From contig JBEAYU010000056.1 in NCBI GenBank assembly GCA_041170435.1, positions 12,272 through 76,271 on the forward strand: 64,000 nucleotides of DNA. The letters are read 5' to 3'. Of the stretch, positions 1,187 to 46,714 are shown one piece after another. Under the pieces are notes generated by a model, which did not search any database, was not told the DNA's origin, and saw only the letters and a list, made by a program, of their open reading frames with translations. The position numbers were made by a program, and so were the translations under genes. Position 1 is the first letter of the stretch. Each line of letters opens with the position of its first letter. Source of the stretch: Bacteroidota bacterium. GTDB lineage: Bacteria > Bacteroidota > Ignavibacteria > Kapaibacteriales > Kapaibacteriaceae.

Positions 1187-1289
1187 TACTGCTCGAAGAA
1201 TGCTCGGGAGGGCAAGAAGCAGCCAAACTGTAGTGGAGATACGCATAAAAATCCTTGAAGTGATCGATTACGTATTGGGAGACACGTCG

Positions 1290-2177: not shown

Positions 2178-2180
2178 TGG

Positions 2181-3239
2181 ATGTGCATGACACTTCGGAG
2201 CATCGGTAGGACTTTAGCTGCCATCATCGGCCTTGGTTCGATGGTGCTCTTGTTTATTGCCTGCACGACCGACCCCGTCGAACCAATACCGTCGGAGAGC
2301 CGCGTCCCAGCGCACCTTGCGCCCGTGCCCGTTCCGGGCGATAATCCGTTGACGCCGGCAAAGATCGAACTCGGCCGCCGTCTGTTCTATGATAAGCGCC
2401 TTTCGAGCCAAGGCACGGTGTCCTGCGCCTCATGTCATCGTCAGGAGCTGTCGTTCAGCGACGCTCCAAATCAGGTCAGTCGAGGTGTGTTCAATGCCCT
2501 CGGACAACGCAACGCCCCCTCCCTGCTCAACGTCGCCTACCGCCCGCATTACTTCTGGGACGGCCGTGCTGCAAGCCTTGAAGATCAGGCGATGACAGCC
2601 TTCCTTAGCTCTGTTGAAATGGACGCCGATACGATGGCGGTCTCGGCGCTGCTTCGCACTGAAGCGTATCGTCATTCGTGGAAGGCCGCATTCTCGGATA
2701 CGGCTGTGAGCATGCGCCGTGCGATGATGGCAATTGCGAGTTTTGAGCGGACGATCGTGAGCGCTGACAGTCGGTATGATCGGTATGTTCTTGGCGACCG
2801 GTCGGCTCTCTCCGAGCAGGAGCGACGTGGGATGAATCTTTTCTTCAGTTCGCGTTCGATGTGCGGATCGTGTCATGGGGGACAGGATCTGACGAATGAT
2901 CAGTTCCAGAACATCGGCCTGTTCAACCATTACTTTGATCGGGGCCGATTCAACGTCACGAAAGATCCTGCCGACGATGGTCTATTCAAGACTCCATCGC
3001 TGCGGAATGTTGCGTTGACACCGCCGTACATGGCCTCCGGTGATAGTGATAAGGGGCCCCTGACAACCCTGGAACAGGTTGTGGAGCACTACAACGAGGG
3101 CGGTACGCCATTCTCGAACAAGGACCGGCGTGTAAAGAAGCTTGGCCTCACAAAGTCTGAGGTTGCTGAGCTGGTTGCCTTCATGAAGGCGCTTACCGAC
3201 TCGTCATCTCTTACGCGGCCAGAGTGGTCAGCCCCGTAA
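2181..3239 (+). CDS. ccp: di-haem cytochrome c peroxidase (CCP/MauG family), lipoprotein
   Basis: Two CxxCH haem-binding motifs (CASCH, CGSCH), a lipoprotein-type signal (LLFIAC) and the FxDxRLS/GxVSCASCH architecture typical of bacterial CCP. It starts 4 nt after the thyX stop. Confidence 0.85.
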   Translation: MCMTLRSIGRTLAAIIGLGSMVLLFIACTTDPVEPIPSESRVPAHLAPVPVPGDNPLTPAKIELGRRLFYDKRLSSQGTVSCASCHRQELSFSDAPNQVSRGVFNALGQRNAPSLLNVAYRPHYFWDGRAASLEDQAMTAFLSSVEMDADTMAVSALLRTEAYRHSWKAAFSDTAVSMRRAMMAIASFERTIVSADSRYDRYVLGDRSALSEQERRGMNLFFSSRSMCGSCHGGQDLTNDQFQNIGLFNHYFDRGRFNVTKDPADDGLFKTPSLRNVALTPPYMASGDSDKGPLTTLEQVVEHYNEGGTPFSNKDRRVKKLGLTKSEVAELVAFMKALTDSSSLTRPEWSAP

Positions 3240-3317
3240 TGATTTGATCACGGCAATCGTCCCACTGTTACGTGAGATTGAACATGCCGTAACGTCTGCG
3301 TGACGTACGTCTGACAC

Positions 3318-3345
3318 TTTTGCATCGTTATGAATCGATGCAAAA
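3318..3345. promoter_or_regulatory. perfect 10-nt inverted repeat (TTTTGCATCG-N8-CGATGCAAAA) spanning the start codon of the first operon gene
   Basis: Read directly from the sequence at 3318-3327 and 3336-3345. The ATG at 3330 lies in the 8-nt spacer. Confidence 0.5.
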
Positions 3346-4340
3346 TTCTCTTCATCTGCGGCTCGGTGAACCAGACTACGATGATGGTGCAGATCGCACG
3401 ACATCTTGGTCATCACGATTGTTCCTTTACACCGCACTACGCCGATGGCCTCCTCGAGAAGGCGGCACGGGCAGGACTCCTTGAGTGGACGATCATTGGC
3501 AACCGTCATCGGCAGCGCGCGCTCGCCGTCCTTCAGTCACATGGTTGCAAGCTCGATGAGTATGGTCGCAACGGTGGGTATGACCTTGTGGTCACGTGCA
3601 GTGACCTTGTCGTACAGCGAAACGTCCGCAAACTGCCCGTGATCCTTGTTCAGGAGGGCATGACCGATCCAGAGAACCTGATGTACCGCGCAGTGGTAGC
3701 ACTTGGACTGCCACGGTATCTGGCTTCAACGTCGACATTTGGCCTGTCGCACATGTACCGACATCTCTGCGTGGCTTCAGAAGGATATCGAGAGCACTTC
3801 CGACGCAAGGGAGTCGATGACGCCAAGATTCGTGTCACAGGCATTCCCAACTTCGATGACTGCGCTCGATTCCTGGATGAACCGGTGGCACATCGCGACT
3901 ACGTCTTAGTGGCCACGAGCGATGCGCGCGAAACACTCAAGTATGAGGATCGTCAGCGCACCATTGAGTACGCCCTTTCCATTGCGGCCGGCCGGCAACT
4001 TGTCTTCAAACTTCATCCCAATGAACGGGTCGATAGGGCAAGGCGTGAGATCGAGCGATGGGCGCCCGGGTCGGCGATTTATCATGATTGCGACATCAAC
4101 CCGCTGATCGCTCATTGTGATGCACTGATAACAAAGTTCTCATCCTGTGTCTACGTAGGAATCGCCCTAGGAAAGGAAGTCTACAGTGACTTCTCGGTCG
4201 AGCAGCTCAGGCGTATGTGCCCGATTCAAAACGGGGGCACGTCGGCACAAGCCATTGCCGAGGTCTGCTCTGAGGTGTTGGAGCAAGGACTGAGCAATGA
4301 CGAGGGCCAACAGACATTTCAGTTCCGGAGGGCTATATGA
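3330..4340 (+). CDS. GT-B-like glycosyl/ulosonyl-transferase candidate with an HP motif (KpsS/KpsC-, TagF- or sialyltransferase-like family unresolved)
   Basis: N-terminal Rossmann-like ILFICGS...; conserved FKLHPNER 'HP' motif and a C-terminal ITKFSSCVYVGIALGKEVY block, both typical of HP-motif GT-B enzymes. The first gene of the operon; its stop overlaps the next start (ATGA). Confidence 0.45.
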   Translation: MNRCKILFICGSVNQTTMMVQIARHLGHHDCSFTPHYADGLLEKAARAGLLEWTIIGNRHRQRALAVLQSHGCKLDEYGRNGGYDLVVTCSDLVVQRNVRKLPVILVQEGMTDPENLMYRAVVALGLPRYLASTSTFGLSHMYRHLCVASEGYREHFRRKGVDDAKIRVTGIPNFDDCARFLDEPVAHRDYVLVATSDARETLKYEDRQRTIEYALSIAAGRQLVFKLHPNERVDRARREIERWAPGSAIYHDCDINPLIAHCDALITKFSSCVYVGIALGKEVYSDFSVEQLRRMCPIQNGGTSAQAIAEVCSEVLEQGLSNDEGQQTFQFRRAI

Positions 4341-5128
4341 TACTGAAGCCTCGGGTGGTGATCATCTGTCAGGCTCGCACAGGGTCGAGCCGCCTTCCAG
4401 GAAAGGTCCTTCTGCCAGTAGCAGGGGAGCCCCTTTTGATCCGATTTCTTGAGCGTGTTTCGATGTCGAAGCATGCAGGACACATGGTTGTGGCAACAAC
4501 GCACAGGCCGCAGGATGACGAGATCGTTCGCCTCTGCTCGGGACGAGGCTATTCGGTGTTCCGCGGAGATGAGAACGATTTGCTCGACCGGCATTTCCGT
4601 GCAGCGCAAATGATGGAGGCCGATGTTGTGGTCAAGATTCCCACTGACTGCCCCCTGATCGACCCACGGGTGATCGACATGGTCATCGACGCATTTCTCA
4701 GACGGTATCCGCACGTCGACTACGTCAGTAATCTGCATCCAGGTACCTGGCCCGACGGAAACGACGTCGAGGTCATGTCGTTCCTTGCTCTGCAACGTGC
4801 CTGGGTAAGTGCTACCAAGCCACATCAGCGTGAGCACACTACGCCGTGGCTGTGGGAAGACAACCTGAATACACGATGCATGAATGTTGAGCGGCCGGAT
4901 GGACGGAAACTTGACGACCGCCATCGGTGGACGATCGACCAGCCCGAGGACTACTTACTGATCCGAGCGGTGTTCGACGCACTGTATTGGAATGATCCGC
5001 GCTTTCGCTGTGAGGATGTGCTGTCGTTTCTGGAGAATCACCCGGAGATCGATCTGATCAACGAGCACCTGCGGGGTCAGAGCTGGTATGTGACGCATTT
5101 GCAAACACAGAAGAGGATCGCCTCATGA
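4337..5128 (+). CDS. acylneuraminate/CMP-ulosonate cytidylyltransferase family protein (NeuA/PseF/SpsF/KdsB-like)
   Basis: N-terminal VVIICQARTGSSRLPGKVLLPVAGEPLL matches the CTP_transf_3 nucleotide-binding motif (compare KdsB IIPARYASTRLPGKPL). Its length (263 aa) fits this family. Confidence 0.75.
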   Translation: MILKPRVVIICQARTGSSRLPGKVLLPVAGEPLLIRFLERVSMSKHAGHMVVATTHRPQDDEIVRLCSGRGYSVFRGDENDLLDRHFRAAQMMEADVVVKIPTDCPLIDPRVIDMVIDAFLRRYPHVDYVSNLHPGTWPDGNDVEVMSFLALQRAWVSATKPHQREHTTPWLWEDNLNTRCMNVERPDGRKLDDRHRWTIDQPEDYLLIRAVFDALYWNDPRFRCEDVLSFLENHPEIDLINEHLRGQSWYVTHLQTQKRIAS

Positions 5129-5982
5129 CGCATGAGCAACAGGAAGAATTGGAACAAGCTGCCCTGCGGGTGCGTCAGCACATTGTTCGGATGTCCACCA
5201 ATGGCGGCTGCTTCATCGGAGCGTCTTTGTCGTGCGCCGACATCTTGGTGTATCTCTACTGGCGCTACCTCAATATCAGTCCCATGACGGTGAACGCAGA
5301 GGACCGCGACGTACTGCTGCTGTCGAAGGGGCACGATGTACCGGCATTGTATGGAGTACTTGCAGAGAGGGGATTCATCAGCAAGACGCGGCTTGGGCAC
5401 CATCTCTCGGTTGAGGATAGCATCTACTGGCATCCGAACCGCTCCGTCAGCGGAGTGGAGTTCCACTCAGGCTCGCTCGGGCACCTGCTCAGCGTGGGCA
5501 TTGGGATGGCACTCGATGCGCGTATGAAGGGGCTGCCCACGCGAGTGGTCGTGATCCTTGGCGATGGCGAGCTCAACGAAGGAAGCATCTGGGAGGCATG
5601 CCTTGTTGCATCGGCTCTGAGCATCGACAATCTCGTGGCGATCGTCGACCGAAATCATTTTCAAGCGAACATTCGCACCGAAGATCTCATTCCGCTCGAG
5701 CCCCTTTCCGAAAAGTTCAGAGCCTTCGGTTGGGATGCCATGCACGTCAACGGCCACGACATGCGATCTCTCGACGAGTGCTTTGGCTCTCTGCAGCTCA
5801 ATACCGGACGTCCCACGGTTGTCATCGCCGACACACGAAGAGGTAAGGGGCTTCCCAGCATCGAGGAGCAGGCCGACCGTTGGTTCTGCAACTTCAGTGC
5901 CGATGAAGCCGATGCGCTCCTTGATGAGCTCAACGGAAATGCACGCGCCACCATCACCTCAGAAAGGCTTATCGTACGATGA
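5125..5982 (+). CDS. transketolase, N-terminal (ThDP-binding) subunit
   Basis: GDGELNEGSIWEA ThDP-binding motif; its length (285 aa) fits split transketolases; 4-nt overlap with both neighbouring genes. Confidence 0.85.
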   Translation: MTHEQQEELEQAALRVRQHIVRMSTNGGCFIGASLSCADILVYLYWRYLNISPMTVNAEDRDVLLLSKGHDVPALYGVLAERGFISKTRLGHHLSVEDSIYWHPNRSVSGVEFHSGSLGHLLSVGIGMALDARMKGLPTRVVVILGDGELNEGSIWEACLVASALSIDNLVAIVDRNHFQANIRTEDLIPLEPLSEKFRAFGWDAMHVNGHDMRSLDECFGSLQLNTGRPTVVIADTRRGKGLPSIEEQADRWFCNFSADEADALLDELNGNARATITSERLIVR

Positions 5983-6947
5983 ATGCCTACGAAACGCTCC
6001 TCCTCGATGCAGCCGCACGCGACGAGCGTCTGGTTGTGATCACGGCCGAGAACCGCGGCCACATGCGGACCGTTCCTCCGATGCTTGGAGATCGATTCAT
6101 AGACGTTGGGATCGCCGAACAGACGATGATCGGAATGGCTGCCGGCATGGCGGTGCGCGGTCGCGTTGTTGTGACGCATGCTCTGGCAGCATTTCTGACG
6201 ATGCGTGCCTTCGAGTTTATTCGTGACGACGTGGCGATCAGCAATGCCGCGGTGATCATGGTAGGCATGGTGCCCGGAGTACTCAGCGATGGGAATGGAC
6301 CAACGCATCAGGCCATCGAGGATGTGTCGATCATGCGCGGCCTGCCAAACGTCAACGTCTTCTGTCCATGCGACGAGCGTGACTTCATCGATGGCATGCG
6401 CGTACTGCTTGACTCACACGCACCATGGTACGTGCGCTACATCAGCACTCCGGATCTGCTGATCGATCGCGTAGCCTTTGAACCCGGCCGAGCAATGATC
6501 ATCCGTGGTGCTTCCCTGCATCGTCCGAACGTGACGATCCTTACCTACGGATTTCTCACCCGTCAGTGCATTGAAGCTGCGGATGAATTGGGTCGTGACG
6601 ACATTCATGTCCGCGTGGTACACATGCGGACCCTTAAACCGGTGGACGCTGCGACCATCCTCCATGCAGCCGCGACCAGCGAATTGGTCGTGACCGTGGA
6701 AGATCATCTCTTGACGGGTGGCTTGGCAACGATCGTTGCCGAGACTCTCATGGCACACGGGAAAGGGGCTCCCGTGCTCACGCTTGGCTTCCCAACGTGG
6801 TTTCGACCGGGGCGACTCAACGAGGTCCTTGAGTATGAACGCCTGAGCTCGCAGGCGATCGCACAGCGCATCCGCCAACGACTGGCCGATATCGTGCATC
6901 CGTCGACCGAGCCCCCTACACAACATCACGAGGTATCCCATGCATGA
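5979..6947 (+). CDS. transketolase, C-terminal (pyrimidine-binding/C-terminal domain) subunit
   Basis: DVGIAEQTMIGMAAGMA... and GPTHQAIEDVSIMRGLPN motifs of the transketolase Pyr and C-terminal domains. Forms a pair with the upstream N-terminal subunit. Confidence 0.85.
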   Translation: MNAYETLLLDAAARDERLVVITAENRGHMRTVPPMLGDRFIDVGIAEQTMIGMAAGMAVRGRVVVTHALAAFLTMRAFEFIRDDVAISNAAVIMVGMVPGVLSDGNGPTHQAIEDVSIMRGLPNVNVFCPCDERDFIDGMRVLLDSHAPWYVRYISTPDLLIDRVAFEPGRAMIIRGASLHRPNVTILTYGFLTRQCIEAADELGRDDIHVRVVHMRTLKPVDAATILHAAATSELVVTVEDHLLTGGLATIVAETLMAHGKGAPVLTLGFPTWFRPGRLNEVLEYERLSSQAIAQRIRQRLADIVHPSTEPPTQHHEVSHA

Positions 6948-8271
6948 ACCAACGTATCCGCCCATCCAGCGCTCCACGGAGTTACTCCAACGTGCCGAGC
7001 GCATCATTCCCGCGACCACGCAAACGCTCGCGAAAGGTCCCGGACAGCATGTGCGTGGCGTAGCGCCTGTCTATGCCCGTCGCGGTAAGGGGGCATACCT
7101 GTGGGACGTCGATGATAACAGATACCTTGACTACTCGATGGCCATTGGACCGCTGATCCTGGGCTACGCAGATCCGGGAGTGAACCGCGCCATCGAGGCT
7201 CAGCTGCATGATGGAATCACATTCTCGCTCATGCATCCTCTGGAAGTGGAGGTTGCGGAGCTGATCCATGGGATCATCCCAAACGCCGAGAACGTGCGCT
7301 ATTCGAAGACGGGGTGTGACGTCACGTCAGCCGCCGTGCGCTTGGCACGTGCCTATACCGGCCGCTCCACCGTGCTCTGCTGTGGATACCATGGCTGGCA
7401 CGACTGGTACATCGCCACGACAGATCGCGCCATGGGTATCCCTCATGCCGTGCGTGACCTGACATATACGTTCAGCTACAACAGCATTCAGAGTGTGTAC
7501 AATGCTATCGATGCCGATACGGCAGCGATCATTCTTGAGCCGATGACCTTCGATGAACCGAACGATGGATTCTTGCAAGAGTTGCGTGAACTGTGTGATC
7601 AGCGTGGCATCGTTCTAATCTTCGATGAGATGTGGACCGGCTTTCGGATCTCTCCCGGCGGTGCACAAATGCGATTCGGTGTCAAGGCAGACCTTGCATG
7701 CTTCTCAAAGGCCGTGGCCAATGGTATGCCGCTGTCTGTTCTGACGGGGCGTGCCGACATCATGCGCCTGCTTGAGCATGATGTATTCTTTTTTACGACC
7801 TTTGGCGGGGAAGCTCTATCACTTGCCGCTGCCAAGGCCACACTTCATCGCCTCGTTGACGGCGAAGTCCTACAGCGCATCGAGCTCATCGGCGATGAAC
7901 TCCGAGAAGGTATCCGGGGAATTCTTGCCGATAATTACATGTCGTATGTCAGCTGCAAGGGGCTTGGTGCACGTACGATGCTGGCGTTCTCGGACACGGC
8001 GGGTGACCCGTTGCTGATGAGGTCGTTCATCCAGCAAGAACTCCTCAAGAACGGGATTCTTTGGAACGGCTTCCATAACCTGAGCGCCTCGCACACGCCA
8101 AGCGATATCCAGTATACTCTCGATATCTACTCAGAGGTCCTTCCCATGCTTCACGAGCACATTCGCATGGGGACACTCGCGATGTCGCTTCGGGGCCGCC
8201 CCGTCGAGCCGGTGTTCCGCAAGACTGGGGGCTTTAATACCAAACCTCGCGTTGAGGTGCACGAGCAATGA
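6940..8271 (+). CDS. class III (glutamate-1-semialdehyde 2,1-aminomutase-like) PLP aminotransferase
   Basis: HemL-family signature: GxxFS...YxKTGCDV..., DEMWTGFRIS and SKAVANGMPLS (PLP-lysine region). 443 aa. Confidence 0.8.
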   Translation: MHEPTYPPIQRSTELLQRAERIIPATTQTLAKGPGQHVRGVAPVYARRGKGAYLWDVDDNRYLDYSMAIGPLILGYADPGVNRAIEAQLHDGITFSLMHPLEVEVAELIHGIIPNAENVRYSKTGCDVTSAAVRLARAYTGRSTVLCCGYHGWHDWYIATTDRAMGIPHAVRDLTYTFSYNSIQSVYNAIDADTAAIILEPMTFDEPNDGFLQELRELCDQRGIVLIFDEMWTGFRISPGGAQMRFGVKADLACFSKAVANGMPLSVLTGRADIMRLLEHDVFFFTTFGGEALSLAAAKATLHRLVDGEVLQRIELIGDELREGIRGILADNYMSYVSCKGLGARTMLAFSDTAGDPLLMRSFIQQELLKNGILWNGFHNLSASHTPSDIQYTLDIYSEVLPMLHEHIRMGTLAMSLRGRPVEPVFRKTGGFNTKPRVEVHEQ

Positions 8272-9074
8272 ATGATATGTTTTCACTCTCGGGTAGGGTG
8301 GCGATCGTCACCGGCGCTGGCGGGCTCCTTGGACGTGAGCATTGCGTGGCTTTGGCCGATGCAGGGGCAACCGTGTATGCGTGTGACATCAATGCGAATG
8401 CAGCATGGGCGGTTGCCTCCGAGATCGGTTCACATCACGTTGGCGTTGCCCTTGATGTCACCGATTCAGAGAGTATCGTCGAGCTTCGGCAGCGCATCCT
8501 ATCTGACACCGGACGCATTGACGTGCTCATCAACAACGCAGCAATGAACGACATGGTCGAAGCACCACTCTCCACCGGCGCTGTCTCGGCCTTCGAGAAC
8601 TATCCGCTAGACCTGTTTCGACGAGTTCTGGATGTGAACGTCACGGGTGTGTTTCTCACCAGCCAGATCATCGGTTCACACATGGCAAGCGTCGGACGCG
8701 GATCGATCATCAATGTCGCATCTACCTACGGAGTGGTCGCACCCGATCAGCGCCTCTACAGACGTTCCGACGGAACGCAGACATTCTTTAAGAGTGCCGC
8801 CTATCCTGCTTCGAAGGGGGCGGTCGTGATGCTCACGAAGTTCCTGGCAACCTATTGGGCCAGACAGGGTGTTCGGGCCAATGCATTGTCACCCGGAGGG
8901 GTGGCTAACGGACAGGACGAGCATTTTCAACATCTGTATGCCGAGCGTACTCCCATGGGTCGGATGGCAGCACCCTCAGACTACAGGTCGGCACTCGTTT
9001 TCCTGGCGTCTGACGCATCGGCATACATGACGGGACAGAACCTCATCGTCGATGGGGGCTGGACCGCATGGTAA
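8268..9074 (+). CDS. short-chain dehydrogenase/reductase (SDR) family oxidoreductase
   Basis: TGAGGLLG Rossmann motif, NNAA and the catalytic YPASK motif. Confidence 0.85.
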   Translation: MNDMFSLSGRVAIVTGAGGLLGREHCVALADAGATVYACDINANAAWAVASEIGSHHVGVALDVTDSESIVELRQRILSDTGRIDVLINNAAMNDMVEAPLSTGAVSAFENYPLDLFRRVLDVNVTGVFLTSQIIGSHMASVGRGSIINVASTYGVVAPDQRLYRRSDGTQTFFKSAAYPASKGAVVMLTKFLATYWARQGVRANALSPGGVANGQDEHFQHLYAERTPMGRMAAPSDYRSALVFLASDASAYMTGQNLIVDGGWTAW

Positions 9075-9141
9075 TTGTTTCAACGATCATTCACGCGCAT
9101 GCCGCAGCAGCACACCTTCTTCAATCTTCGCAGAGGTCAAC

Positions 9142-10038
9142 ATGAACAGCACGTCACAACCGGTACCGGCCATTGGAGCCGATGCGCCAGTGTACATCAT
9201 CGCCGAGGTCGGTATCAATCACAATGGCTCGCTTGACATTGCAACCGAAATGATCCAGGGGGCTGCCCGAGCCGGCGCTTCATGTGTGAAGTTCCAGAAG
9301 CGAACTCCCGAACTGTGCGTTCCGCGTGATCAGTGGCACATTGAGCGCGACACGCCATGGGGTCGAATGACCTACATCGACTATCGCCACAAGGTGGAAT
9401 TCACCGAGTCTGATTATCGCGTGATCGATGCATTGTGCCGTGAACTTGGAATTGATTGGACCGTTTCCTGCTGGGATGAAGAAGCGGTGGCCTTCATGGA
9501 GGCAAACTTCGACGTTTCCTTCTACAAGGCTGCGTCGGCATCACTGACCGATCTGAAGCTGCTTCGCGCCATGGCCTCAACCGGCAAGCCTCTGATGATA
9601 TCGACCGGCATGTCAACGATCGACGAGATTGAAGCTGCCGTGTCTGCCCTGAACGGACATCGGCTGATGATCGCCCATGCAACGTCGGCCTATCCGTGCT
9701 CGACGGATGAGCTCAATCTGCGCATGATCCACACGCTTGCACAGCGGTTCCCGGAGAGCACTATTGGCTACAGTGGTCACGAGGTTGGTTTGGCCACCAC
9801 GTACGCAGCCGTTGCTCTCGGCGCCCGATTTGTTGAACGCCACATCACGCTCGATCGGGCAATGTGGGGAACGGATCAGGCCGCAAGTGTTGAGATCGCG
9901 GGTCTTGAGCGCATGGTCCGCGACATCCGCGAGATCGAACGCTCACTCGGTGATGGCGTCAAGCGCTTGTATGATAGTGAGCTCGGTGTTCGCGCTAAGC
10001 TGCGCCGAGTTCCCTCGTCCATCGCAGGAGAAGCCTAA
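9142..10038 (+). CDS. N-acetylneuraminate synthase (NeuB/PseI/LegI) family protein, TIM-barrel only, with no C-terminal SAF domain
   Basis: ORF 9052..10038; likely start at the internal ATG 9142 (MNSTSQ...). IIAEVGINHNGSLD is the hallmark N-terminus of NeuB-family PEP-condensing synthases. The protein ends at ~298 aa, before where the SAF/antifreeze-like domain would sit. Confidence 0.75.
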   Translation: MNSTSQPVPAIGADAPVYIIAEVGINHNGSLDIATEMIQGAARAGASCVKFQKRTPELCVPRDQWHIERDTPWGRMTYIDYRHKVEFTESDYRVIDALCRELGIDWTVSCWDEEAVAFMEANFDVSFYKAASASLTDLKLLRAMASTGKPLMISTGMSTIDEIEAAVSALNGHRLMIAHATSAYPCSTDELNLRMIHTLAQRFPESTIGYSGHEVGLATTYAAVALGARFVERHITLDRAMWGTDQAASVEIAGLERMVRDIREIERSLGDGVKRLYDSELGVRAKLRRVPSSIAGEA

Positions 10039-10041
10039 GCG

Positions 10042-10806
10042 ATGGAGCTAACGCTTGCCACCGTCTGCGCGATCATTGTGATCCTCTCGGGGGCTCTGCT
10101 CATTCTGTTGGAGCGACTGTTCCCGTACAATCGCGGCCAACGTCTGTTTCGTCAAGGGTTCATCACGGATCTCGGTCTGTATGCCATCGTTCAGAGCTAC
10201 CTCCTTGGATTGGTAATCTTTGGCTTCATTGCATGGATCGACCAACAGACCGGAGTGAGCCGCTGGACGTTCTTTCGATCTCAGAACCTGTGGGTGCAAA
10301 TGCTGGTTGTGCTCGTTGTCCACGACTTCTACATCTACTGGTTCCACCGATGGCAGCACAAGAGCCCCCTACTGTGGAGGATCCATGAGGCCCATCACTC
10401 GACGAAAGATGTTGATTGGCTCAGTGGATCGCGGTCGCATAGCCTGGAGATCTTGGTCAACCAGACCGTGGAGTTTCTTCCGATCGTTCTGCTGGCATCA
10501 GCCGAGATCGCGGTCATGAAAGGAGCCGTTGATGCGATCTGGGGCATGTACATCCACTCAAACATCGATGTGCGCTCGGGTTGGATGCAGCGTCTGATCA
10601 ACGGACCGGAAATGCACCGGTGGCATCATGCTGATGACCACCGGTCACACAATCGCAACTTTTCTACGAAGCTCGCCGTCTGGGACTGGCTATTCGGAAC
10701 GGCCTATCTACCGGCTGACGAAAAGCCGGGAGCGTATGGCTTGGACGATGAGTTTCCGAAAGGGTACATTGGACAGCATCTCCATGCGTTCCGACGTCGA
10801 CGCTGA
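10042..10806 (+). CDS. fatty acid hydroxylase / sterol desaturase superfamily integral membrane protein
   Basis: Hydrophobic N-terminal half plus histidine boxes HDFYIYWFHRWQH, HEAHHS and HRWHHADDH (di-iron membrane hydroxylase family, like OlsE/ERG3/CrtZ). Confidence 0.75.
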   Translation: MELTLATVCAIIVILSGALLILLERLFPYNRGQRLFRQGFITDLGLYAIVQSYLLGLVIFGFIAWIDQQTGVSRWTFFRSQNLWVQMLVVLVVHDFYIYWFHRWQHKSPLLWRIHEAHHSTKDVDWLSGSRSHSLEILVNQTVEFLPIVLLASAEIAVMKGAVDAIWGMYIHSNIDVRSGWMQRLINGPEMHRWHHADDHRSHNRNFSTKLAVWDWLFGTAYLPADEKPGAYGLDDEFPKGYIGQHLHAFRRRR

Positions 10807-11575
10807 TCTCCGGATCGTCGAGCTCGACGATGTCGAACAAATCGTCGAAGCTTCCGAACGGGAGCGAATCGATGCCCATCTGGCAGTTGCGCTCGATGTT
10901 GATACCATTCTCGTATCCGACCTTCATCTCGGTTCGGACGTGGCAAGGTCACGGGCTCTAGTCATGATGCTCAAGACACACTCATACAAAAGGCTGGTCC
11001 TAAACGGAGACGTGTTTGACGATTTGAACTTCAAGCGTTTGACGAAGGACGACTGGAAGGTTCTGTCACTTCTTCGTCGTCTGTCGAATCCACGTCGAGG
11101 TATCGAAGTGGTCTGGATCGTTGGAAACCACGACGGGGGAGTGGCGGAGATCTTGACCCATTTACTGGGAGTACCCGTGCATGAGGAGATGGTCTTCACG
11201 GTTGCCGGCAAGAGGCATCTGGCCATCCACGGTCATCAGTTCGATCGCTGGATCACGAAGCATGTGACGATCACAGCGATTGCCTCGGCCTTGTATCTGC
11301 TCTTGCAGCGCCTCGATCCTAAGCATCGAGTGAGTCGGTGGGTGAAGAGAACAAGCAAGAAGTGGCTGAGACTCAGCGATAAGATCGCTCATGACGCGGT
11401 GTCACACGGACGTCGAAATCACAGTGTTCAGTTTGTCCACTGCGGACATACGCACATGCCTACGATCAAGCAGGTTGATGACATGGTATACGTCAATTCT
11501 GGTTGCTGGACTGATAAGCCATCAACATACGTCGTGGTCGATCATCAGGGAGATGTTCAGCTGCATTCCATGTAG
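10784..11575 (+). CDS. LpxH-like calcineurin-type metallophosphoesterase (UDP-2,3-diacylglucosamine hydrolase family)
   Basis: ORF 10628..11575 overlaps the upstream gene; likely start at 10784 (MRSDVD...). Motifs VSDLHLG, NGDVFDD, VGNHDG, HGHQFD and CGHTH match LpxH/MPE metal-binding blocks. Confidence 0.65.
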   Translation: MRSDVDADLRIVELDDVEQIVEASERERIDAHLAVALDVDTILVSDLHLGSDVARSRALVMMLKTHSYKRLVLNGDVFDDLNFKRLTKDDWKVLSLLRRLSNPRRGIEVVWIVGNHDGGVAEILTHLLGVPVHEEMVFTVAGKRHLAIHGHQFDRWITKHVTITAIASALYLLLQRLDPKHRVSRWVKRTSKKWLRLSDKIAHDAVSHGRRNHSVQFVHCGHTHMPTIKQVDDMVYVNSGCWTDKPSTYVVVDHQGDVQLHSM

Positions 11576-11605
11576 AACCGTTTCGTAGCTTCCGCATGGA
11601 ACTGC

Positions 11606-12331
11606 ATGCATCATGACCATTCAACTCGCCCCGTTCTTTTTGATGTCCGACACGTCACGAAATCCTATCGAATGGGTGAGCTCGATGTTGTTGCACTGAA
11701 CGACGTCTCGTTGATGGTCCGTCAAAGCGAGCTCCTTGTGATACTCGGGGCATCGGGCAGCGGTAAGTCGACGCTTCTGAACATCCTCGGAGGCTTGGAC
11801 GTCCCAACGACGGGCACCGTGACGTATCGTGATCAGGATCTTTCGCACGCCACAGACGCGAAGCTGACGGAGTTCCGACGCCGTTCCGTGGGTTTTGTGT
11901 TCCAGTTCTACAACATCATACCGAGTCTGACGGCTCTTGAGAACGTGCGACTCGTGACGGATCTTGTCGACGAGCCTATGGATCCGCGTCAGGCACTGGA
12001 GTTGGTGGGCCTGGCCGATCGAGCATCGCACTTTCCTTCGCAAATGTCAGGGGGCGAACAGCAGCGGGTTGCCATCGCACGTGCCATCGCGAAGCGCCCC
12101 GACGTGCTCTTGTGCGATGAACCCACCGGCGCTTTGGATTTCGAGACCGGAGTCAAGGTCCTCGAAGTGATCGACATGGTTCATCGTGAGCTGGATGCGA
12201 CCGTGGCACTGATCACGCACAACGCGAGCATTGCCGACATGGCCGATCGCGTCCTTCGCATGCGGAGTGGGTCGATCGTCGAGGAGTTCGCCCCGGCGGT
12301 TCGAAAGCAGCCGCGAGAGCTGTCGTGGTGA
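11606..12331 (+). CDS. ABC transporter ATP-binding protein (MacB/LolD/DevA-type)
   Basis: Walker [13 protein letters not shown] signature [14 protein letters not shown], Walker [12 protein letters not shown]. Confidence 0.9.
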
Positions 12332-14694
12332 TTCCGACGCTCACCATCAAGTTGTTCCGAGAGGTCCGCCACATGCGCGGACAAATGATTGCGATTATCC
12401 TTGTGATCGCCGCTGGAATTGCCAACTACGTTGCCTTTCAGAGCACGCACTCATCTCTTGTAATGTCGCAGCAAGCCTACTACGCCGCTTCAAACTTCGG
12501 CGACGTGTGGGTGCAGGTCAGGCGCGCACCCGAGGCACTGCGTCAGCGGATCTCTGCCATTGACGGCGTAACAAGTGTTGACCTGCGGGTTGTGGCCAGT
12601 GTGGTTGTGGACATTCCCGGTCTCATCGAGCCGGCAAGCGGCGTCATTACCAGTGTGCCGGGCCGTGATCAGCCCCCTATCAATCGACTCAGCCTGCGGT
12701 CCGGACGCTGGATAGAGCAGGGTGCGACGGACGAGGTGATCGTTTCCTATGCCTTTGCATCCGCCAATGGGTTTCATGAGGGCGACACCATCAATGCTGT
12801 CATTAACGGACGATGGAAGTCGCTGCGCATCGTGGCCACTGCGTTGTCACCCGAATGGATTTTGGAGCTGGTGCCGGGCTCCATGTTGATCGACAACAAG
12901 CGTTTTGCCGTCATGTGGATGGAGCATGATGCGCTTTCCTCGCTGTATGACATGTCCGGTGCGTGGAACAGCGCGTGTATTGATCTTGCTCCCGGAGCGA
13001 GCGTTTCTTCGACCATCGACCGTCTTGACGCGATGCTGCGTCCACATGGCACCACGGGAGCCATTGCACGTGAAGATCAATTGTCACACAAGTTTCTATC
13101 TGACGAGATACGGCAGCTGTCGCTCACGGCGCTTGTGGTTCCCTTGATCTTTCTCGGTGTTGCGATCTTCCTGTTGAATGTGTCGCTGCTCCGCTTCGTG
13201 ACCACGCAGAGGGCCTACATCGCCATTCTCAAGGCATTTGGATACAGCAATGCTCGAATCTCGCTACACTACGTTGGCTTTGCCGTCGTGGCGGTTGCCG
13301 GCGGTACGGTCCTTGGTCTGGCAGGGGGCCTGTACATCGGTGTCAAGCTCGTACAGATGTATCTCGACTTCTACCGGCTGCCAGTGTTGGAGTTTGACAT
13401 GCCCGTGCTGGTGGTGATCGGGGCGATCATCATGAGTCTTGTTGCGGCATCTCTCGGAGCTATGGCTGCCGTTCGGGCGATCGTGCGACTGCCACCGGCC
13501 GAGGCGATGCGTCCGGAGTCGCCTCGCTCGTATCGCGGAGGGATCCTCGAACGCAGCGGCGTAACGCGGTTCTTTGGTCCGATAACATCGATGATCGTAC
13601 GCAACGTCATGCGTCGTCCGGTCAGAGCCGCCGTGAGCCTGATGACCATTGCCCTTGCCTTGTCGCTCCTGGTGCTCGGACGCTTCTTCATGGAGATGTT
13701 TGGAACCATCATCGACGTTCAGTTCAACTCCGTTGCTCGAGAAGATGCGGCTGTGACGTTTATGACACCGCTTTCGCATGGCGTGGTGCACGATCTAGCC
13801 GCATTGCCGGGAGTGATGGCCGTCGAACCCTTCCGAGCGATCTCTGTCGATTTGATCGCCGGCTCGACGGTCAAGCGAACCGCCGTGACGGCGGGTGTTG
13901 ACATGCCTGACCTGCACCGTGTCACATCCATGAGTGGGCAACCACAACGCGTGCCCTCGCACGGAGTGGCGTGTTCTCAGTACATGGCCGAGTCCATGGG
14001 CATCGGAGTTGGCGATACGATACAGCTGCGGCAGATCGACGATCAACGGCGGACCTTTACAGTCGCGGTCACGGCCGTGATCGATGACATGATGGGTGTC
14101 CAAGTGTATGCATCACACGGTGTGCTCAGAAGTTTACTGCGAGAGCAGGGAAGTATCAGTGGGGCCTTTCTGCAGATCGATCCGGCCAAGCTGCAGGACT
14201 TTTACCGCGCCATCAAGAAGCTCCCATCCATGTCGAGCGTGGTCATGCGTGAGCGAGCAATGCGTAGCTTCGATGAGAGTTACATGCAGTTCATGGACAT
14301 TTCGAATTTCTATATCGTGTTCTTCGCTTCCCTTATTGCCTTTGGCGTGGTGTTCAACAACGCTCGCATTGCACTGAGCGAGCGAGGCAATGAACTTGCG
14401 AGCCTGCGTGTCCTCGGCTTCTCTGTCCGGGAAGTGTCGATGATCCTTCTCGGCGAACAGCTCGTGCTCACACTGGCAGCGCTACCGGTAGGGTTGATAT
14501 GGGGCGTGCTGTGGTCGATGTGGATGCCTTCACTCATCGCCACGGATCTGTTTCGATTTCCGTTTGCCATCAGCATGCGGAATCTCGGTCTCAGTAGCGC
14601 GATGATCCTGACTGTGGCTGCCGTCACGGGGGTGTTCATTCGACGTCGTATTGGGCGATTGGACATGATCGCCGTCTTGAAATCACATGAATGA
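12325..14694 (+). CDS. ABC transporter permease with two FtsX-type domains (MacB/DevC-like, fused double permease)
   Basis: 789 aa. Two hydrophobic FtsX-like blocks (~aa 260-400 and the C-terminal ~140 aa), each preceded by a large soluble domain. The start overlaps the ATPase gene. Confidence 0.75.
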
Positions 14695-15851
14695 CCATGA
14701 AGCTTCCTCATCTTCGATACATCGGATGGATCGTCACGGCACTCGTCGTGGTGTCCGTCATCATCTATGCGCTACTACCAACTCCTCTGGACGTGGAGCA
14801 GGTTCGCGTCGTACGACAGCATGTGCAGACGACCATCGAGGCAGATGGAGCGATGCGCGTACGAGATAAGTACATCGTTGCCATGCCTGCCACTGGTGTT
14901 CTTGAGAGGCTCTCGATCGAAGCCGGTGATAGTGTCGTGGCTGGTCAGATCATCGGCACGATGATCCCTCCGGAGATCGATGCGCGCCAGCGGGCCGAGG
15001 CCGAGAACCGTGTTCGCTCAGCTGAGGCCGGTAGCGTCGAGATACGCCAGAGACGTGCTTCGCTGAGCCCCTTGGTAGAACAGGCTCGCAGGCGAGCTGA
15101 GAGGCTAGCGCGTCTTGATCAGGCTGGAGCGGTTTCGAAGGAGCAGGTTGAGAACGCCCGGGATGCTTTTGAGCAGCTTCAGCGTGAGGTAGATGCTCTG
15201 CGCGCACGTGAGCAAGCCATTGGGTATGAGACGCAGGCAGTGCGAAGCATGCTTGCGGCCCGACCCGGGCAGCGTGTTGCCGTGCGTGCCCCAACCACCG
15301 GTATTGTGCTTCGCCGCTACGAGTACTCTGAACGGACCATCCCGGCCGGAACTCCGATCGTAGAGATCGGTGACACATCGAACATGGAGGTTGTGATCGA
15401 TGTATTGAGCGCTGACGCGGTGCGCGTTCGTCCCGGCATGAGGGTTAACCTCGATGGGTGGGGAGGGGGCACACGGATCTTCGGAACGGTTCGACGCATC
15501 GAGCCGTCCGCGCGCACAAAGGTCTCCTCTCTCGGCATCGAGGAGCAGCGCGTGTCTGTCATCGCCGACGTGACCGATCGCCCCTCATCGCTTGGAGATG
15601 GCTACCGCGTCGAGGCGGCGATCGTCCTCTCCGAGGCACGAAATGCTCTCTGTATCCCACTCGGAGCGTTGCTTCGAGACGGCAACCAGTGGTATGTGTT
15701 CGTGGTCTACGCCGGAATTGTCCAACGAAAGGATGTGACCCTTGGCGAACGGAATGCCCTGTTGACCGCCATCACATCGGGCCTCAGTGAGGGTGATCAC
15801 GTCATCATGCACCCGTCGGAGAAGATCCGTCCGGGCGACAACGTTCGCTGA
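14691..15851 (+). CDS. HlyD-family membrane fusion (periplasmic adaptor) protein
   Basis: N-terminal TM helix, long coiled-coil region (EAENRVRSAEAGSVEIRQRR...LQREVDALRAREQ) and a C-terminal beta-barrel region, typical of MacA/DevB. 4-nt overlap with the permease gene. Confidence 0.8.
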   Translation: MTMKLPHLRYIGWIVTALVVVSVIIYALLPTPLDVEQVRVVRQHVQTTIEADGAMRVRDKYIVAMPATGVLERLSIEAGDSVVAGQIIGTMIPPEIDARQRAEAENRVRSAEAGSVEIRQRRASLSPLVEQARRRAERLARLDQAGAVSKEQVENARDAFEQLQREVDALRAREQAIGYETQAVRSMLAARPGQRVAVRAPTTGIVLRRYEYSERTIPAGTPIVEIGDTSNMEVVIDVLSADAVRVRPGMRVNLDGWGGGTRIFGTVRRIEPSARTKVSSLGIEEQRVSVIADVTDRPSSLGDGYRVEAAIVLSEARNALCIPLGALLRDGNQWYVFVVYAGIVQRKDVTLGERNALLTAITSGLSEGDHVIMHPSEKIRPGDNVR

Positions 15852-15859: not shown

Positions 15860-18800
15860 TTAGGCTGGGTACGTCGTCGCTCCGCCGGCTCCGTGACAGG
15901 CCTTGAACTTCATGCCGGAACCGCATGGGCACGGTTCGTTACGTCCAACCTTGCGGCCGACATTTCGAACAGTGGCCGTCTGCTGAGCCTCCTGCTGCGC
16001 ATTCGGATCCGATCCAAAGGTTGGCGTCGCACTCGGATGCGAGAACCGCAGTTGACGCGTTGGCGTTGAGGTGGTGACCGAAGGCACAGGAGCAGGGCGG
16101 GGAGCTGCCTGAGCCGCCGGACGTTCCACGACCTGTGGGAAGTACTTAAAGGCGAACGACACCGTAGCCTCATTGATCTGTGTGATCAGCTCGAGGAAGA
16201 TGCGATACGCCTCTTGTTTGTATTCAAGGATAGGGTCTTTCTGTCCGTAAGCTCGGAGGTAGATACCTTCCTTAAGATCATCCATCACCCGAAGGTGTTC
16301 TCTCCATTCGTCGTCCACGGCACGTAAGGCGGCAACGCGCTCGAGCTGCGCCATGAACTCCGGTCCGAGCATGGATTCTTTGCGGTCGTAGAATTCGATA
16401 ACGGATTCCCTGACCCGCTCCAGCACCTCACTCTTCGGTTCCGACGCAAATGCCTCTGCCGAGACGTTGGGTTCGCAGAGCATCTTAGCGCGGATGGTGT
16501 TCATGAATGCGGTGTGATCGCCCGACGGGTGATGTTCATCGTACCAGAGCTCGCACAGCTCCGATGCGTATTCGATCATCTCGCTACGCAGACGCTCTCC
16601 CATAAGCGCGTGGCGACGTCGATCATAGATCACCTCGCGCTGTTGATTCATCACGTTGTCGTATTCCAGCAGGCGTTTACGAATGCCGAAGTTGTTTCCT
16701 TCGACTTTTTTCTGTGCATTCTCAACGGCCTTGGTCACGATGCCGCTCTCGATCGGTTCGCCCTCCGGAACCTTCATGCGCTGCATTGCTGATGACAACC
16801 GCTCGCCACCGAACAGACGCATCAGATCGTCCTCGAGCGAGATGAAGAACTGCGACGAGCCCGGGTCTCCCTGACGTCCCGCACGGCCGCGCAGCTGACG
16901 GTCGATGCGCCGCGCCTCGTGGCGCTCCGTACCGATGATGGCAAGGCCCCCTGCCGCTTTCACGTCTGGATCCAGCTTGATGTCTGTACCGCGGCCTGCC
17001 ATGTTCGTTGCGATCATGACGGCACCCTTCTTCCCGGCATTGGCCACGATCTCAGCCTCGCGCTGATGCTGCTTGGCATTCAGGACATTGTGGTTGACGT
17101 TGGCGCGCTTGAGCATCTTCGACAGAAGTTCGGAGACTTCGACGCTGGTCGTGCCGACAAGTACGGCGCGGCCGGCTTTGAGCTCCCGTTGGACAGCCTC
17201 AACGACGGCGTTGTACTTCTCGCGCTTGGTGCGGAAGATCAGATCATTCATGTCCTTGCGCTGTACCGGACGATTCGTCGGGATCGCTACCACGTCGAGA
17301 CTGTAGATCTGCCAGAACTCGGCAGCCTCGGTCTCGGCCGTACCGGTCATTCCGGCGAGCTTGTGGTACAGTCGAAAGTAGTTCTGAAGCGTGACCGTGG
17401 CGAACGTCTGCGTGTCCTGTTCAACGAACACGCCTTCCTTTGCTTCAATGGCCTGATGAAGTCCGTCAGAGTAGCGTCGCCCTTCGAGGATGCGGCCCGT
17501 GAACTCATCGACGATCTTGATCTTCCCATCCTGGACGACGTATTCGTCGTCGCGGACATACAGCGTGTATGCCCGCAGAAGTTGATTGACGATGTGGATG
17601 CGGTCCGAACGATCCGAGAACACGCGCATGAGCTCGTCACGCTTCGTCGTCTTTTCTTCCGGACTTATGCTTGCGTCTCCTTCGAGGGCGCTCATCTGAG
17701 CGGCAATGTCCGGAATCACAAACATCTCCGGGTCTTCCTGTGCCGATGTCAGCAGGTCGCGCCCCTTTTCCGAGATGTCGATCGAGTGGTTCTTCTCGTC
17801 AACGGTAAAGAAGAGCTCCTTGTCGATGATGTGCATGCGCTGACCTTGATCGCGCAGGTGATCAAGTTCCGCATCACGCAGCAGCTTCATCGCATCAGGC
17901 TCCTGCAGCAGCTTCATGAGTTTGCTCTGCTTTGGCATGCCTCGATGAGCCCGCAGAAGAAGAACGCCGGCATTGGTCCTATCCTCCTTGTAGCCTGTTG
18001 CGAGGAGCTTTTCAGCCTCTGCAACGATGCCGTTGACGTATCTGGCCTGTGCATCAACCAGACGCTGAATACGGGGCTTCATCTCGACGAAGGCCGTTTC
18101 TGTGCTACCGGCCGTGACCGGGCCAGAGATGATAAGGGGCGTTCGGGCTTCGTCGATCAGAACCGAGTCGACTTCATCGACCATGGCAAACCAGTGTCCC
18201 CGCTGCACCATGTCCGCTGGCTCGGTCACCATGTTATCACGCAGATAATCGAAGCCAAACTCGTTGTTCGTGCCCCACGTGATATCGGCAGCGTATTGCG
18301 CCTTACGTTCGTCCGGCCGCATATCTGACTGGATGCACCCGGTTGTCACTCCCAAGAGATCGAAGATGGGTCGCATCCACTCGCGGTCACGTCGGGCCAG
18401 ATAATCGTTCACCGTCACCAGATGCACACCGCGTCCTGCGATGGCATTGAGATACATCGGCAACGTGGAGACGAGTGTTTTACCCTCACCCGTGCCCATC
18501 TCGGCGATCTTTCCTTGGTGGAGGACGATGCCGCCGATGAGCTGGACGTCATAGGGTACCATATCCCAGGTCTGCTCATTGCCCACGACGAGATACTTGT
18601 GTCCGACGAGTCGACGTCCGGCCTCTTTGACAACGGCAAACGCCTCCGGGAGAATCTCATTGAGTGCCTCTTGCGTGGCCTCAAACTGCTCTCGCTCGTT
18701 GGCATTGAGTCGTGCGTAGAGGTCGGAACGCTCTGTGTGATCCATCTCCAGATCCGTGCGAAGCCGCTCGCGGATCTCTTCTGCCTCGGCTCGAAGGTCT

Positions 18801-33771: not shown

Positions 33772-33826
33772 AACGGTTGTGTGTTGGCAGTCGGCAAAAC
33801 TATGGATGATCGATCAATCGTAGTAC

Positions 33827-37414: not shown

Positions 37415-37418
<4 letters not shown>
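36720..37418 (+). CDS. tsaA: tRNA (adenine37-N6)-methyltransferase TsaA/YaeB family
   Basis: [37 protein letters not shown] motif of the TsaA beta-barrel SAM-binding domain, plus a C-terminal extension. Confidence 0.8.
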
Positions 37419-41083
<3,665 letters not shown>

Positions 41084-46677: not shown

Positions 46678-46714
46678 GCCCCTGTCGCCGTTGCGACAGG
46701 GGCTTTTCATTTTT
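46678..46714 (+). terminator. rho-independent terminator after the giant T9SS gene
   Basis: GCCCCTGTCGC-cgtt-GCGACAGGGGC perfect 11-bp stem followed by TTTTCATTTTTG. Confidence 0.8.

Follow-up and report, generated by a model that had tools for sequence, protein, structure and literature searches.

The two genes that close a tightly packed string of sugar genes, one for a membrane di-iron hydroxylase and the other for an LpxH-like phosphoesterase, raise the question of whether they serve the pathway encoded upstream or only lie next to it. The window, that is, the whole stretch of 64,000 nucleotides analysed here, which comes from an uncultured, Kapabacteria-like bacterium, carries this string on the + strand from position 3330, with adjoining gene ends mostly overlapping or a few bases apart and with a sole sizeable intergenic gap at 3240–3329. 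A sequence-only reading of the locus had argued from position, between a NeuB-like gene and an ABC exporter, that either a hydroxylated glycolipid is made or the phosphoesterase liberates, from an NDP-sugar, the sugar used in the NeuB-like condensation. Both genes are indeed present on the + strand, the start of the phosphoesterase being corrected to the ATG at 10784 from that of the mechanically listed open reading frame (10628–11575), and the NeuB-type sugar operon upstream was confirmed by the Pfam matches of its genes (3330–10038) and their tight packing. No terminator-like site was found between the NeuB, hydroxylase, phosphoesterase and ABC genes, and a search with Rfam returned no riboswitch near the operon. 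The features are the following.

1179–3239, + strand: ThyX and a di-haem cytochrome c peroxidase (CCP), backbone genes (Pfam Thy1, CCP_MauG).
3318–3345, + strand: perfect 10-bp hairpin around the ATG of the first cluster gene, in the region of the 3240–3329 gap.
3330–4340, + strand: GT-B fold protein, first gene of the core (Epimerase_2, E=2.9e-4, 20 bits, under the cut-off).
4337–5128, + strand: CMP-sugar-type cytidylyltransferase, KdsB/NeuA family (CTP_transf_3, E=1.8e-22).
5125–5982, + strand: N-terminal subunit of a split transketolase (Transketolase_N, 3.7e-27).
5979–6947, + strand: C-terminal subunit of the split transketolase (Transket_pyr, 8e-28; Transketolase_C, 6.2e-24).
6940–8271, + strand: class-III (glutamate-1-semialdehyde aminomutase-like) aminotransferase (Aminotran_3, 3.6e-49).
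8268–9074, + strand: short-chain dehydrogenase/reductase, SDR (adh_short_C2, 1.8e-45).
9052–10038, + strand: NeuB-family PEP-condensing ulosonic acid synthase, SAF-less (NeuB PF03102, 1.3e-73, 247.9 bits).
10042–10806, + strand: membrane di-iron oxygenase of the FA_hydroxylase/sterol desaturase superfamily, 254 aa (PF04116, E=1.5e-30).
10784–11575, + strand: LpxH-like metallophosphoesterase (MPE) with helical cap, His-type (GNHD), 263 aa (Pfam Metallophos_2, Metallophos).
11606–15851, + strand: MacB-type ABC ATPase, FtsX permease and HlyD-family adaptor (Pfam).

Synteny identifies the seven genes at 3330–10038 as the conserved functional unit of the locus, since they follow one another in identical order in Kapabacteria, Ignavibacteria, an unclassified 3.2-Mb contig, a 'Bacteroidetes' MAG and two Nitrospirota-type loci. 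Some versions hold an additional gene, namely a 166-aa KdsC-like HAD (Hydrolase_3) between the SDR and NeuB in the Nitrospirota-type clusters (L086/L090) and an Exo_endo_phos gene inside the cluster of L089. The GT-B protein has 5761 homologues, annotated as 'hypothetical' everywhere, and its AF2 model (pLDDT 88.6) gave nearly tied Foldseek matches to 2-epimerases (3.6e-10) and TagF (1.4e-9). It is a distant relative of both UDP-GlcNAc 2-epimerases (NeuC-like) and TagF-like transferases, and might act as a hydrolysing epimerase or as a transferase. The cytidylyltransferase is closest in the PDB to 6oew, a 'Cytidylyltransferase' (1.5e-40), followed by KdsB entries, and the KdsB models lie far under their cut-off. 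The aminotransferase, with 361.7 bits for PRK06209 against a cut-off of 486, counts sugar C-6' aminotransferases and an aminopentol aminotransferase among its PDB relatives, while the SDR reached no NCBIfam equivalog cut-off. As for the NeuB-like synthase, no SAF domain was matched in the Pfam search, and its PDB relatives include SpsE, PseI and a 290-aa sialic acid synthetase. The core product would be a CMP-activated, probably aminated, 3-deoxy-ulosonic acid, probably an acidic amino sugar of the cell envelope. A literature search for the gene combination (NeuB/nonulosonic, transketolase and cytidylyltransferase) found no description of it.

The functional link read from position is weaker than it first seemed, to begin with on the downstream side. 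The ABC, FtsX and HlyD genes are not fixed neighbours of the cluster: four unrelated genes separate them from it in L001/L016, they are missing from L085/L039 and they do not lie beside it in L086–L090. A fixed exporter of the cluster was therefore rejected.

With regard to the hydroxylase, its assignment to the di-iron membrane family holds, with a PF04116 score of 106.7 bits against a cut-off of 31, all eight motif histidines in place (H102xxxH106, H115xxH118H119 and H192xxH195H196) and hydrophobic segments at 5–23, 41–66 and 145–166. The sole NCBIfam match was the OlsE model (E=3.3e-34), at 118.5 bits against an equivalog cut-off of 475 and over model positions 92–285 only, and a PDB sequence search returned no relative. 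A carotenoid beta-ring hydroxylase (CrtZ) was also considered, and size and gene context speak against it. CrtZ enzymes measure about 160–175 aa, while the protein of the window has 254 aa, an extra N-terminal membrane region and a NeuB cluster as its partner; no carotenoid genes occur among its neighbours.

The gene lies directly after NeuB and co-directional with it in 32 related loci, namely 29 that also have the phosphoesterase and L087–L089, and likewise in the truncated L045. This position is kept in relocated clusters (L017, L022, L087–L089) and where the cluster is inverted with respect to the phosphoesterase (L069, L071). The interpretation built on position holds only in part: the hydroxylase follows NeuB in most Kapabacteria/Ignavibacteria-type clusters, whereas the phosphoesterase is conserved without the cluster. 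Moreover, the hydroxylase must be regarded as an accessory gene, because six clusters lack it (L025, L028, L055, L065, L086 and L090), and it is not strictly bound to the cluster, since a 60%-identical hydroxylase is solitary in L092, near the SecA backbone and with no cluster within 9 kb. It looks like an optional, lineage-specific add-on at the 3' end of the core. The protein would be an O2-dependent, membrane-embedded di-iron enzyme acting at the membrane, its target being presumably a lipid-anchored acceptor or product of the sugar pathway, as OlsE acts on the ornithine lipid head group. The glycolipid idea is possible for this gene, which may represent a lineage-specific tailoring step of the core pathway or of its lipid acceptor.

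The alternative which survives best is that the hydroxylase acts on a bulk membrane lipid (a lipid A acyl chain, an ornithine lipid, a glycine lipid or a sphingolipid) and is unrelated to the sugar pathway, with which it only has an operon in common in this lineage. The solitary copy of L092 and the six clusters devoid of the gene speak for it, as does OlsE being the nearest curated model. Nevertheless, the exact position after NeuB despite relocation and inversion is poorly explained by inherited gene order alone, and we hold this alternative to be doubtful, though with a real share of the probability. The literature on aminoglycosphingolipid and on Bacteroides lpxH provided no usable data.

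The phosphoesterase gene, of which the first 23 nt lie within the hydroxylase gene, encodes a 263-aa protein present identically in public data (P0001). The LpxH-like call was upheld on several counts: Pfam recognized Metallophos_2 (3.9e-11) and Metallophos (7.6e-07), the nearest PDB relative by sequence was LpxH (E=0.007), and the top 25 Foldseek matches were all LpxH (E 5e-12 to 8e-9), four orders of magnitude ahead of generic phosphoesterases. The invariant motifs are D46xH48, G75D76, G114N115H116D117, H149 and G221H222xH224, which reproduce the metal-ligand pattern of LpxH (DxH, GD, GN, H, GHxH); the ligands D46, H48, D76, N115, H149, H222 and H224 show no variation among 63 homologues and are kept in at least 135 of 143 family representatives. 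In the AF2 model (pLDDT 84), helices 150–213 are inserted between blocks 4 and 5 as a predicted LpxH-type cap, for which lipid binding is putative. Basic cap residues lie near the R157/K167 positions of LpxH, in an approximate alignment with an E. coli LpxH sequence which agrees with the PDB alignment over residues 3–204, barring a few positions at which the PDB chains are themselves variants. In block 3, LpxH has an arginine (GNR) that binds the lipid X 1-phosphate and has been described as LpxH-specific (PMC5016852, PMC3087551). The residue is His116 in the window and histidine in 63/63 homologues and in 143/143 family representatives, a difference that also counts against a role in lipid A synthesis. 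The curated LpxH models scored 31.3 bits (PRK05340, cut-off 134) and 29.1 bits (TIGR01854, cut-off 190.35). Judged by its sequence, the protein is not a canonical LpxH, because of the GNH of block 3 and of curated scores so far under the cut-offs.

Gene context separates the phosphoesterase from the sugar cluster in most loci. Of 92 loci, 52, among them Terriglobia, have the phosphoesterase but no cluster; copies 45–55% identical occur in numerous genomes that show no cluster in the surrounding 10 kb, and none of the five clusters retrieved by way of the GT-B core gene contains it. In six close relatives (L085, L039, L037, L027, L035 and L042) the order is ThyX-CCP-MPE-SecA with no sugar genes; in two of them (L085 and L039), which continue with Aminotran_5, YceI and an Ig protein, the arrangement equals the window minus eight genes. 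The cluster would accordingly sit between ancestral neighbours of the phosphoesterase, ThyX-CCP upstream and SecA downstream, so that the latter would be co-transcribed with the sugar genes and not dedicated to them. A separate clade of cluster-linked phosphoesterases was sought but does not show in a quick neighbour-joining distance tree, which interleaves them with stand-alone copies.

Other observations tell against independence, since the phosphoesterase stays beside the cluster through three Ignavibacteria arrangements, co-directional, divergent (L055, L065) and convergent (L069, L071); a locus of the L069 type bears the label Ignavibacterium album. In addition, two MAGs hold a backbone phosphoesterase plus a second copy on a relocated cluster (L017 with L037, L022 with L039), which could mean a real functional tie. 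Genuine paralogy, a block acquired by horizontal transfer and mixed bins are all conceivable causes of such two-copy MAGs.

A second alternative is that the phosphoesterase dephosphorylates the ulosonate phosphate, formed by the NeuB-like enzyme from PEP and a sugar phosphate, before CMP activation, the LpxH-like enzyme replacing in Kapabacteria/Ignavibacteria the KdsC-like HAD phosphatase seen elsewhere. The Hydrolase_3 gene of the Nitrospirota-type clusters and the Exo_endo_phos gene of L089, neither of which is found in the cluster of the window, fit a pathway step which the phosphoesterase might fill here, and its adjacency through several rearrangements, as well as the second copy accompanying the relocated cluster, points the same way. 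The overlap of its start with the hydroxylase gene, 23–38 nt in many relatives, could be added, but CCP is overlapped likewise where the cluster is absent. Furthermore, two loci (L087 and L088) have the cluster and the hydroxylase and no adjacent phosphatase of any kind, the family is common at loci devoid of the cluster, and an LpxH-type lipid-binding cap would be unexpected in a soluble sugar-phosphate phosphatase. On balance, we regard such a phosphatase as unlikely.

Less probable still is a joint role for all eight or nine genes at 3330–11575 in making a membrane glycolipid or LPS substituent of a new kind. After CMP activation and transfer to a lipid, a transketolase-derived, aminated 3-deoxy-ulosonic acid would become the substrate of the di-iron hydroxylase, and a lipid-linked pyrophosphate or phosphate intermediate of the pathway would be handled by the His-type LpxH-like enzyme. 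If so improbable a scheme were true, it would provide the first function for 'LpxH2'-type enzymes. Finally, the release of a sugar from an NDP-sugar by the phosphoesterase, in the role of NeuC or PseG, can practically be set aside: LpxH chemistry is indeed the cleavage of a UDP-sugar pyrophosphate, and the GT-B protein, only weakly epimerase-like (20 bits), could be a TagF-like transferase, but by fold it matches UDP-GlcNAc 2-epimerases best and it stands where NeuC would, the five GT-B-fetched clusters function without the phosphoesterase, which is itself cluster-less in most loci, its cap is of the LpxH type, and the Nitrospirota versions have a HAD instead.

The explanation we prefer, tentatively and with a little less than even confidence, is therefore that of a core with an accessory hydroxylase and an independently conserved LpxH-type lipid enzyme which adjoins the cluster. 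The phosphoesterase is most likely the general LpxH-type lipid pyrophosphatase of the lineage, rather than an NDP-sugar hydrolase. It would be a dimetal enzyme of LpxH fold with a basic/hydrophobic helical cap, drawn from a large His-type (GNH) family kept independently of the cluster, and it would cleave a nucleotide pyrophosphate linked to a lipid; the foremost candidate reaction is the conversion of UDP-2,3-diacylglucosamine into lipid X, which is step four in the synthesis of lipid A. A KdsD-like SIS+CBS gene at 46691–47722 of the window shows that Kdo-type LPS precursors are made by the organism. No second LpxH-like gene was found within the 64-kb window, nor any LpxI-like Pfam match among the roughly 40 window proteins scanned.

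For Chlorobi, Bacteroidetes and Acidobacteria, only a His-type LpxH homologue has been reported, with no LpxH and no LpxI (PMC3087551 supplement; Opiyo et al. 2010), and the LpxG paper contains no statement on the phyla concerned. The literature favours the phosphoesterase being the sole lpxH-like gene of its genome, a circumstance that the sequence-only reading had named as contrary to its own proposal. For the UDP-diacylglucosamine hydrolase step in the Bacteroidota-related phyla and Acidobacteria, which lack the Arg-type LpxH and LpxI, the His-type LpxH-fold family (359 clusters at E<=1e-30, histidine invariant) offers a concrete candidate. Moreover, the His/Arg difference is relevant to the inhibitor spectrum, since LpxH is an antibiotic target. 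Two further observations weigh against the lipid A reading. Complementation of E. coli lpxH fails with the His-type LpxH2 of P. aeruginosa, for which a different substrate has been assumed (PMC3087551, PMC5016852, PMC6286764). Besides, no lpx genes lie beside the stand-alone phosphoesterases, whose neighbours are unrelated and not conserved; taken for itself, this absence is no evidence either way on a lipid A role.

When compared with known systems, the phosphoesterase shares with the LpxH of beta/gamma-proteobacteria (PDB 5k8k, 5b49, 8qjz) the calcineurin-like dimetal core, the metal ligands and the cap, whereas its block 3 reads GNH instead of GNR, identity is about 20% and the TM-score 0.55–0.64. 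The block-3 histidine is common to it and to 'LpxH2', the His-type LpxH paralogues. Proteobacterial LpxH2 has been modelled on Aquifex aq_1956 (PDB 2YVT) with E ~1e-26 (PMC3087551). For the protein of the window, LpxH alone was found in the PDB by sequence and among the top 50 fold matches, so that it may form a branch separate from LpxH2. As regards OlsE, the superfamily, the histidine boxes and the membrane topology are common to the hydroxylase, which differs in being partnered with a NeuB cluster, with no ornithine-lipid gene among the operon genes scanned. Lastly, the core resembles the nonulosonic/ulosonic operons (NeuC-NeuB-NeuA, PseG-PseI-PseF, KdsA-C/KdsB) in joining a NeuB-family synthase, a CTP_transf_3 protein and an Epimerase_2-like GT-B protein in one operon, and some cluster versions also share the KdsC-like HAD of the KdsA-C/KdsB systems. 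Nevertheless, its NeuB is SAF-less and scores under the cut-offs of both NeuB_NnaB (237.6 against 399.65) and PseI (190.6 against 340.25), and its obligatory split transketolase, class-III aminotransferase and SDR are without counterpart in the known nonulosonic pathways. Uncharacterised, spread across phyla and annotated mostly as 'hypothetical', this seven-gene core is a more novel item than the two genes that had drawn attention to the locus.

The two genes flagged in the sequence-only reading, a hydroxylase and an LpxH-like phosphoesterase, are real, as is the sugar operon in which they had been placed, since they are assigned by Pfam and lie in one plus-strand gene string. From NeuB through the hydroxylase and phosphoesterase to the ABC gene no terminator-like site was found, and the sole sizeable gap within the string lies at 3240-3329. 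By the names of its homologues, the window belongs to a Kapabacteria-like bacterium of the Bacteroidota/Ignavibacteria/Chlorobi group. The run spans 1179-15851, and its genes and the following SecA, as assigned by Pfam, are:

1179-2177, plus strand, ThyX
2181-3239, plus strand, di-haem cytochrome c peroxidase (CCP)
3330-4340, plus strand, weak Epimerase_2-like protein (the GT-B protein)
4337-5128, plus strand, CTP_transf_3 cytidylyltransferase
5125-5982 and 5979-6947, plus strand, the two halves of a transketolase
6940-8271, plus strand, class-III aminotransferase
8268-9074, plus strand, SDR
9052-10038, plus strand, NeuB
10042-10806, plus strand, FA_hydroxylase
10784-11575, plus strand, metallophosphoesterase
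11606-15851, plus strand, ABC ATPase, FtsX permease and HlyD adaptor
15860-19009, minus strand, SecA

The start codon (ATG) of the first cluster gene falls in the 8-nt loop of a perfect 10-bp inverted repeat at 3318-3345 (TTTTGCATCG ... CGATGCAAAA; a T-rich stretch follows), which could be either a ThyX-CCP terminator or a translation-masking hairpin. The ThyX ORF gives 332 residues from a GTG, with the Thy1 domain beginning at residue 78 and relatives having 281-283 residues; judging from the sequence, the true start is probably further downstream. Elsewhere in the window, an 820-residue protein with several Ig-like domains and a Por_Secre_tail, a type IX secretion sorting domain (21318-23780, plus strand), keeps the same backbone position in a relative (L085), the sole Rfam match is a class A bacterial RNase P RNA (33822-34268, minus strand, 254 bits), and very long plus-strand ORFs occur at 37415-41083 (1222 aa), 41928-46652 (1574 aa) and 56232-60509 (1425 aa).

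Loci of relatives were all scored for the presence of the window's genes: 80 had been fetched via the phosphoesterase, and a further 12 via single homologues of it, of the hydroxylase or of the cluster's first gene. The conserved unit is a seven-gene core (3330-10038 in the window; also L086-L090) composed of a GT-B/epimerase-like protein, labelled "hypothetical" in all sources, CTP_transf_3, a split transketolase, a class-III aminotransferase, an SDR and a SAF-less NeuB. Its order is constant in Kapabacteria, Ignavibacteria, other FCB-type contigs and two Nitrospirota-type loci. Descriptions of such a core with obligatory transketolase, aminotransferase and SDR were sought in the literature and not found, nor was any description of the hydroxylase as its accessory; both flagged proteins are members of already known superfamilies. 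The NCBI organism labels of thirteen loci (Chitinophaga pinensis, Hyphomicrobiales, Patescibacteria, Paceibacterota, Didemnitutus, Saccharibacteria) clash with the rest of the set and are probably wrong: the operons in L006, L010-L012, L015, L020 and L023 are 54-94% identical to the window's, and L038, L059, L062, L072, L078 and L083 are labelled as groups in which lipid A synthesis is not expected.

The hydroxylase goes with this core as an accessory gene. In 32 loci (29 of which contain the phosphoesterase, the others being L087-L089), and in the truncated L045, it comes directly 3' of NeuB in the same orientation; this order is kept where the cluster lies elsewhere in the genome (L017, L022, L087-L089) and, in L069 and L071, where it is inverted relative to the phosphoesterase and a CHAD gene separates the two. 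Six clusters are without it, and one copy (L092, 60% identity) stands alone. By family (PF04116, 106.7 bits) and motifs, with all the His boxes present (H102xxxH106, H115xxH118H119, H192xxH195H196) and hydrophobic stretches at 5-23, 41-66 and 145-166, the product is a bona fide membrane di-iron oxygenase; OlsE is the sole curated NCBIfam model matched (118.5 against a cut-off of 475), and a PDB sequence search found no solved relative. That such an enzyme should close a CMP-sugar operon in so fixed a way points to a membrane-bound acceptor or product. The glycolipid proposed earlier may still hold for the hydroxylase; in L089 an LPG_synthase_TM (flippase-like) gene lies directly 5' of the cluster. 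The argument drawn from the ABC exporter fails, because the ABC/FtsX/HlyD transporter is a variable neighbour of the cluster.

The phosphoesterase, by comparison, depends little on the cluster for its conservation: 52 loci, Terriglobia (47-50% identity) among them, carry it without any cluster inside 10 kb, and none of the five clusters reached via the GT-B gene has it. The order ThyX-CCP-phosphoesterase is found in L085, L039, L037, L027, L035 and L042, followed by SecA-Aminotran_5 in the two of these whose downstream DNA was read, L085 and L039, so that the backbone of close relatives is the window's own minus the core, the hydroxylase and the ABC/FtsX/HlyD genes. In these cluster-less relatives the phosphoesterase gene begins inside CCP, just as in the window it begins inside the hydroxylase gene. 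A quick NJ tree mixes cluster-linked with stand-alone copies, and those linked to ThyX-CCP nest among the cluster-linked. The cluster in the window is located between CCP and the phosphoesterase gene, which is resident there; either the cluster arrived at this site or some lineages lost it, the phosphoesterase being retained where the cluster is absent. Nevertheless, in Ignavibacteria the phosphoesterase stays beside the cluster, divergent (L055, L065) or convergent (L069, L071), and two MAGs carry two copies each (L017 and L037 in CAYXKK01; L022 and L039 in CAMCXP01), that on the ThyX-CCP-SecA backbone being 54-55% identical to the window's and that at the end of the relocated cluster 63-64%; these may be real paralogues, or the whole block may have been transferred horizontally, or the bins may be mixed.

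The main rival explanation, that different lineages fill a phosphatase step of the cluster pathway differently, draws on these arrangements and on the core variants: a KdsC-like HAD is added in L086 and L090, being a 166-residue protein between SDR and NeuB in Nitrospirota-type loci, and the L089 cluster has a different phosphoesterase, an Exo_endo_phos gene, together with the flippase-like gene immediately upstream; L087 and L088, however, have no phosphatase near the cluster, and we consider this explanation unlikely. The least supported of the earlier proposals is the phosphoesterase as an NDP-sugar hydrolase, since the GT-B protein already occupies the NeuC position (in its model, pLDDT 88.6, UDP-GlcNAc 2-epimerases match best and TagF-type transferases a close second) and the cluster occurs elsewhere without the phosphoesterase.

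A role in lipid A synthesis would fit the phosphoesterase better. Opiyo et al. (PMC3087551) reported that Chlorobi, Bacteroidetes and Acidobacteria have the other lipid A steps but lack LpxI, their one LpxH homologue being of the His type. The His-type LpxH-fold family would be the conserved candidate for this lipid A step in these phyla, of which the literature searched held no clear statement. With a SIS + CBS protein of the KdsD/KpsF type (arabinose-5-phosphate isomerase; 46691-47722, plus strand) encoded in the window, the organism is an LPS producer, and an ordinary source of Kdo is implied in addition to the NeuB-like cluster.

The ORF finder placed the phosphoesterase start at 10628, but the start is taken as the ATG at 10784, since no further in-frame start codon occurs from there to the catalytic core and the identical public protein P0001 has 263 residues; the gene thus overlaps that of the hydroxylase by 23 nt. 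All five metallophosphoesterase blocks are invariant across 63 homologues, and the AlphaFold model (pLDDT 84) has a three-helix insertion (150-213) between blocks 4 and 5. Databases already auto-annotate the protein as LpxH. The name LpxH-like is accurate as a description of the fold, since LpxH structures take all of the first 25 places among the Foldseek matches in the PDB (E 5e-12 to 8e-9, TM 0.55-0.64), generic phosphoesterases appearing from 1e-7. Two defining LpxH features are nevertheless missing: scores with the curated LpxH models reach 29-31 bits where the cut-offs are 134-190, and block 3 reads GNH, whereas a His-to-Arg change at this position is described as unique to LpxH and universal in it, the Arg clamping the lipid X phosphate (PMC5016852, PMC3087551). 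In a profile search of 1.84 billion representatives the family comprised 359 clusters at E<=1e-30, with His in 143/143 members, so the phosphoesterase belongs to a large His-type family. It corresponds in this one respect, the His in block 3, to "LpxH2", whose P. aeruginosa member fails to complement lpxH (PMC3087551); the proteobacterial LpxH2 was modelled on PDB 2YVT, whereas the window phosphoesterase matches only LpxH in the PDB by sequence.
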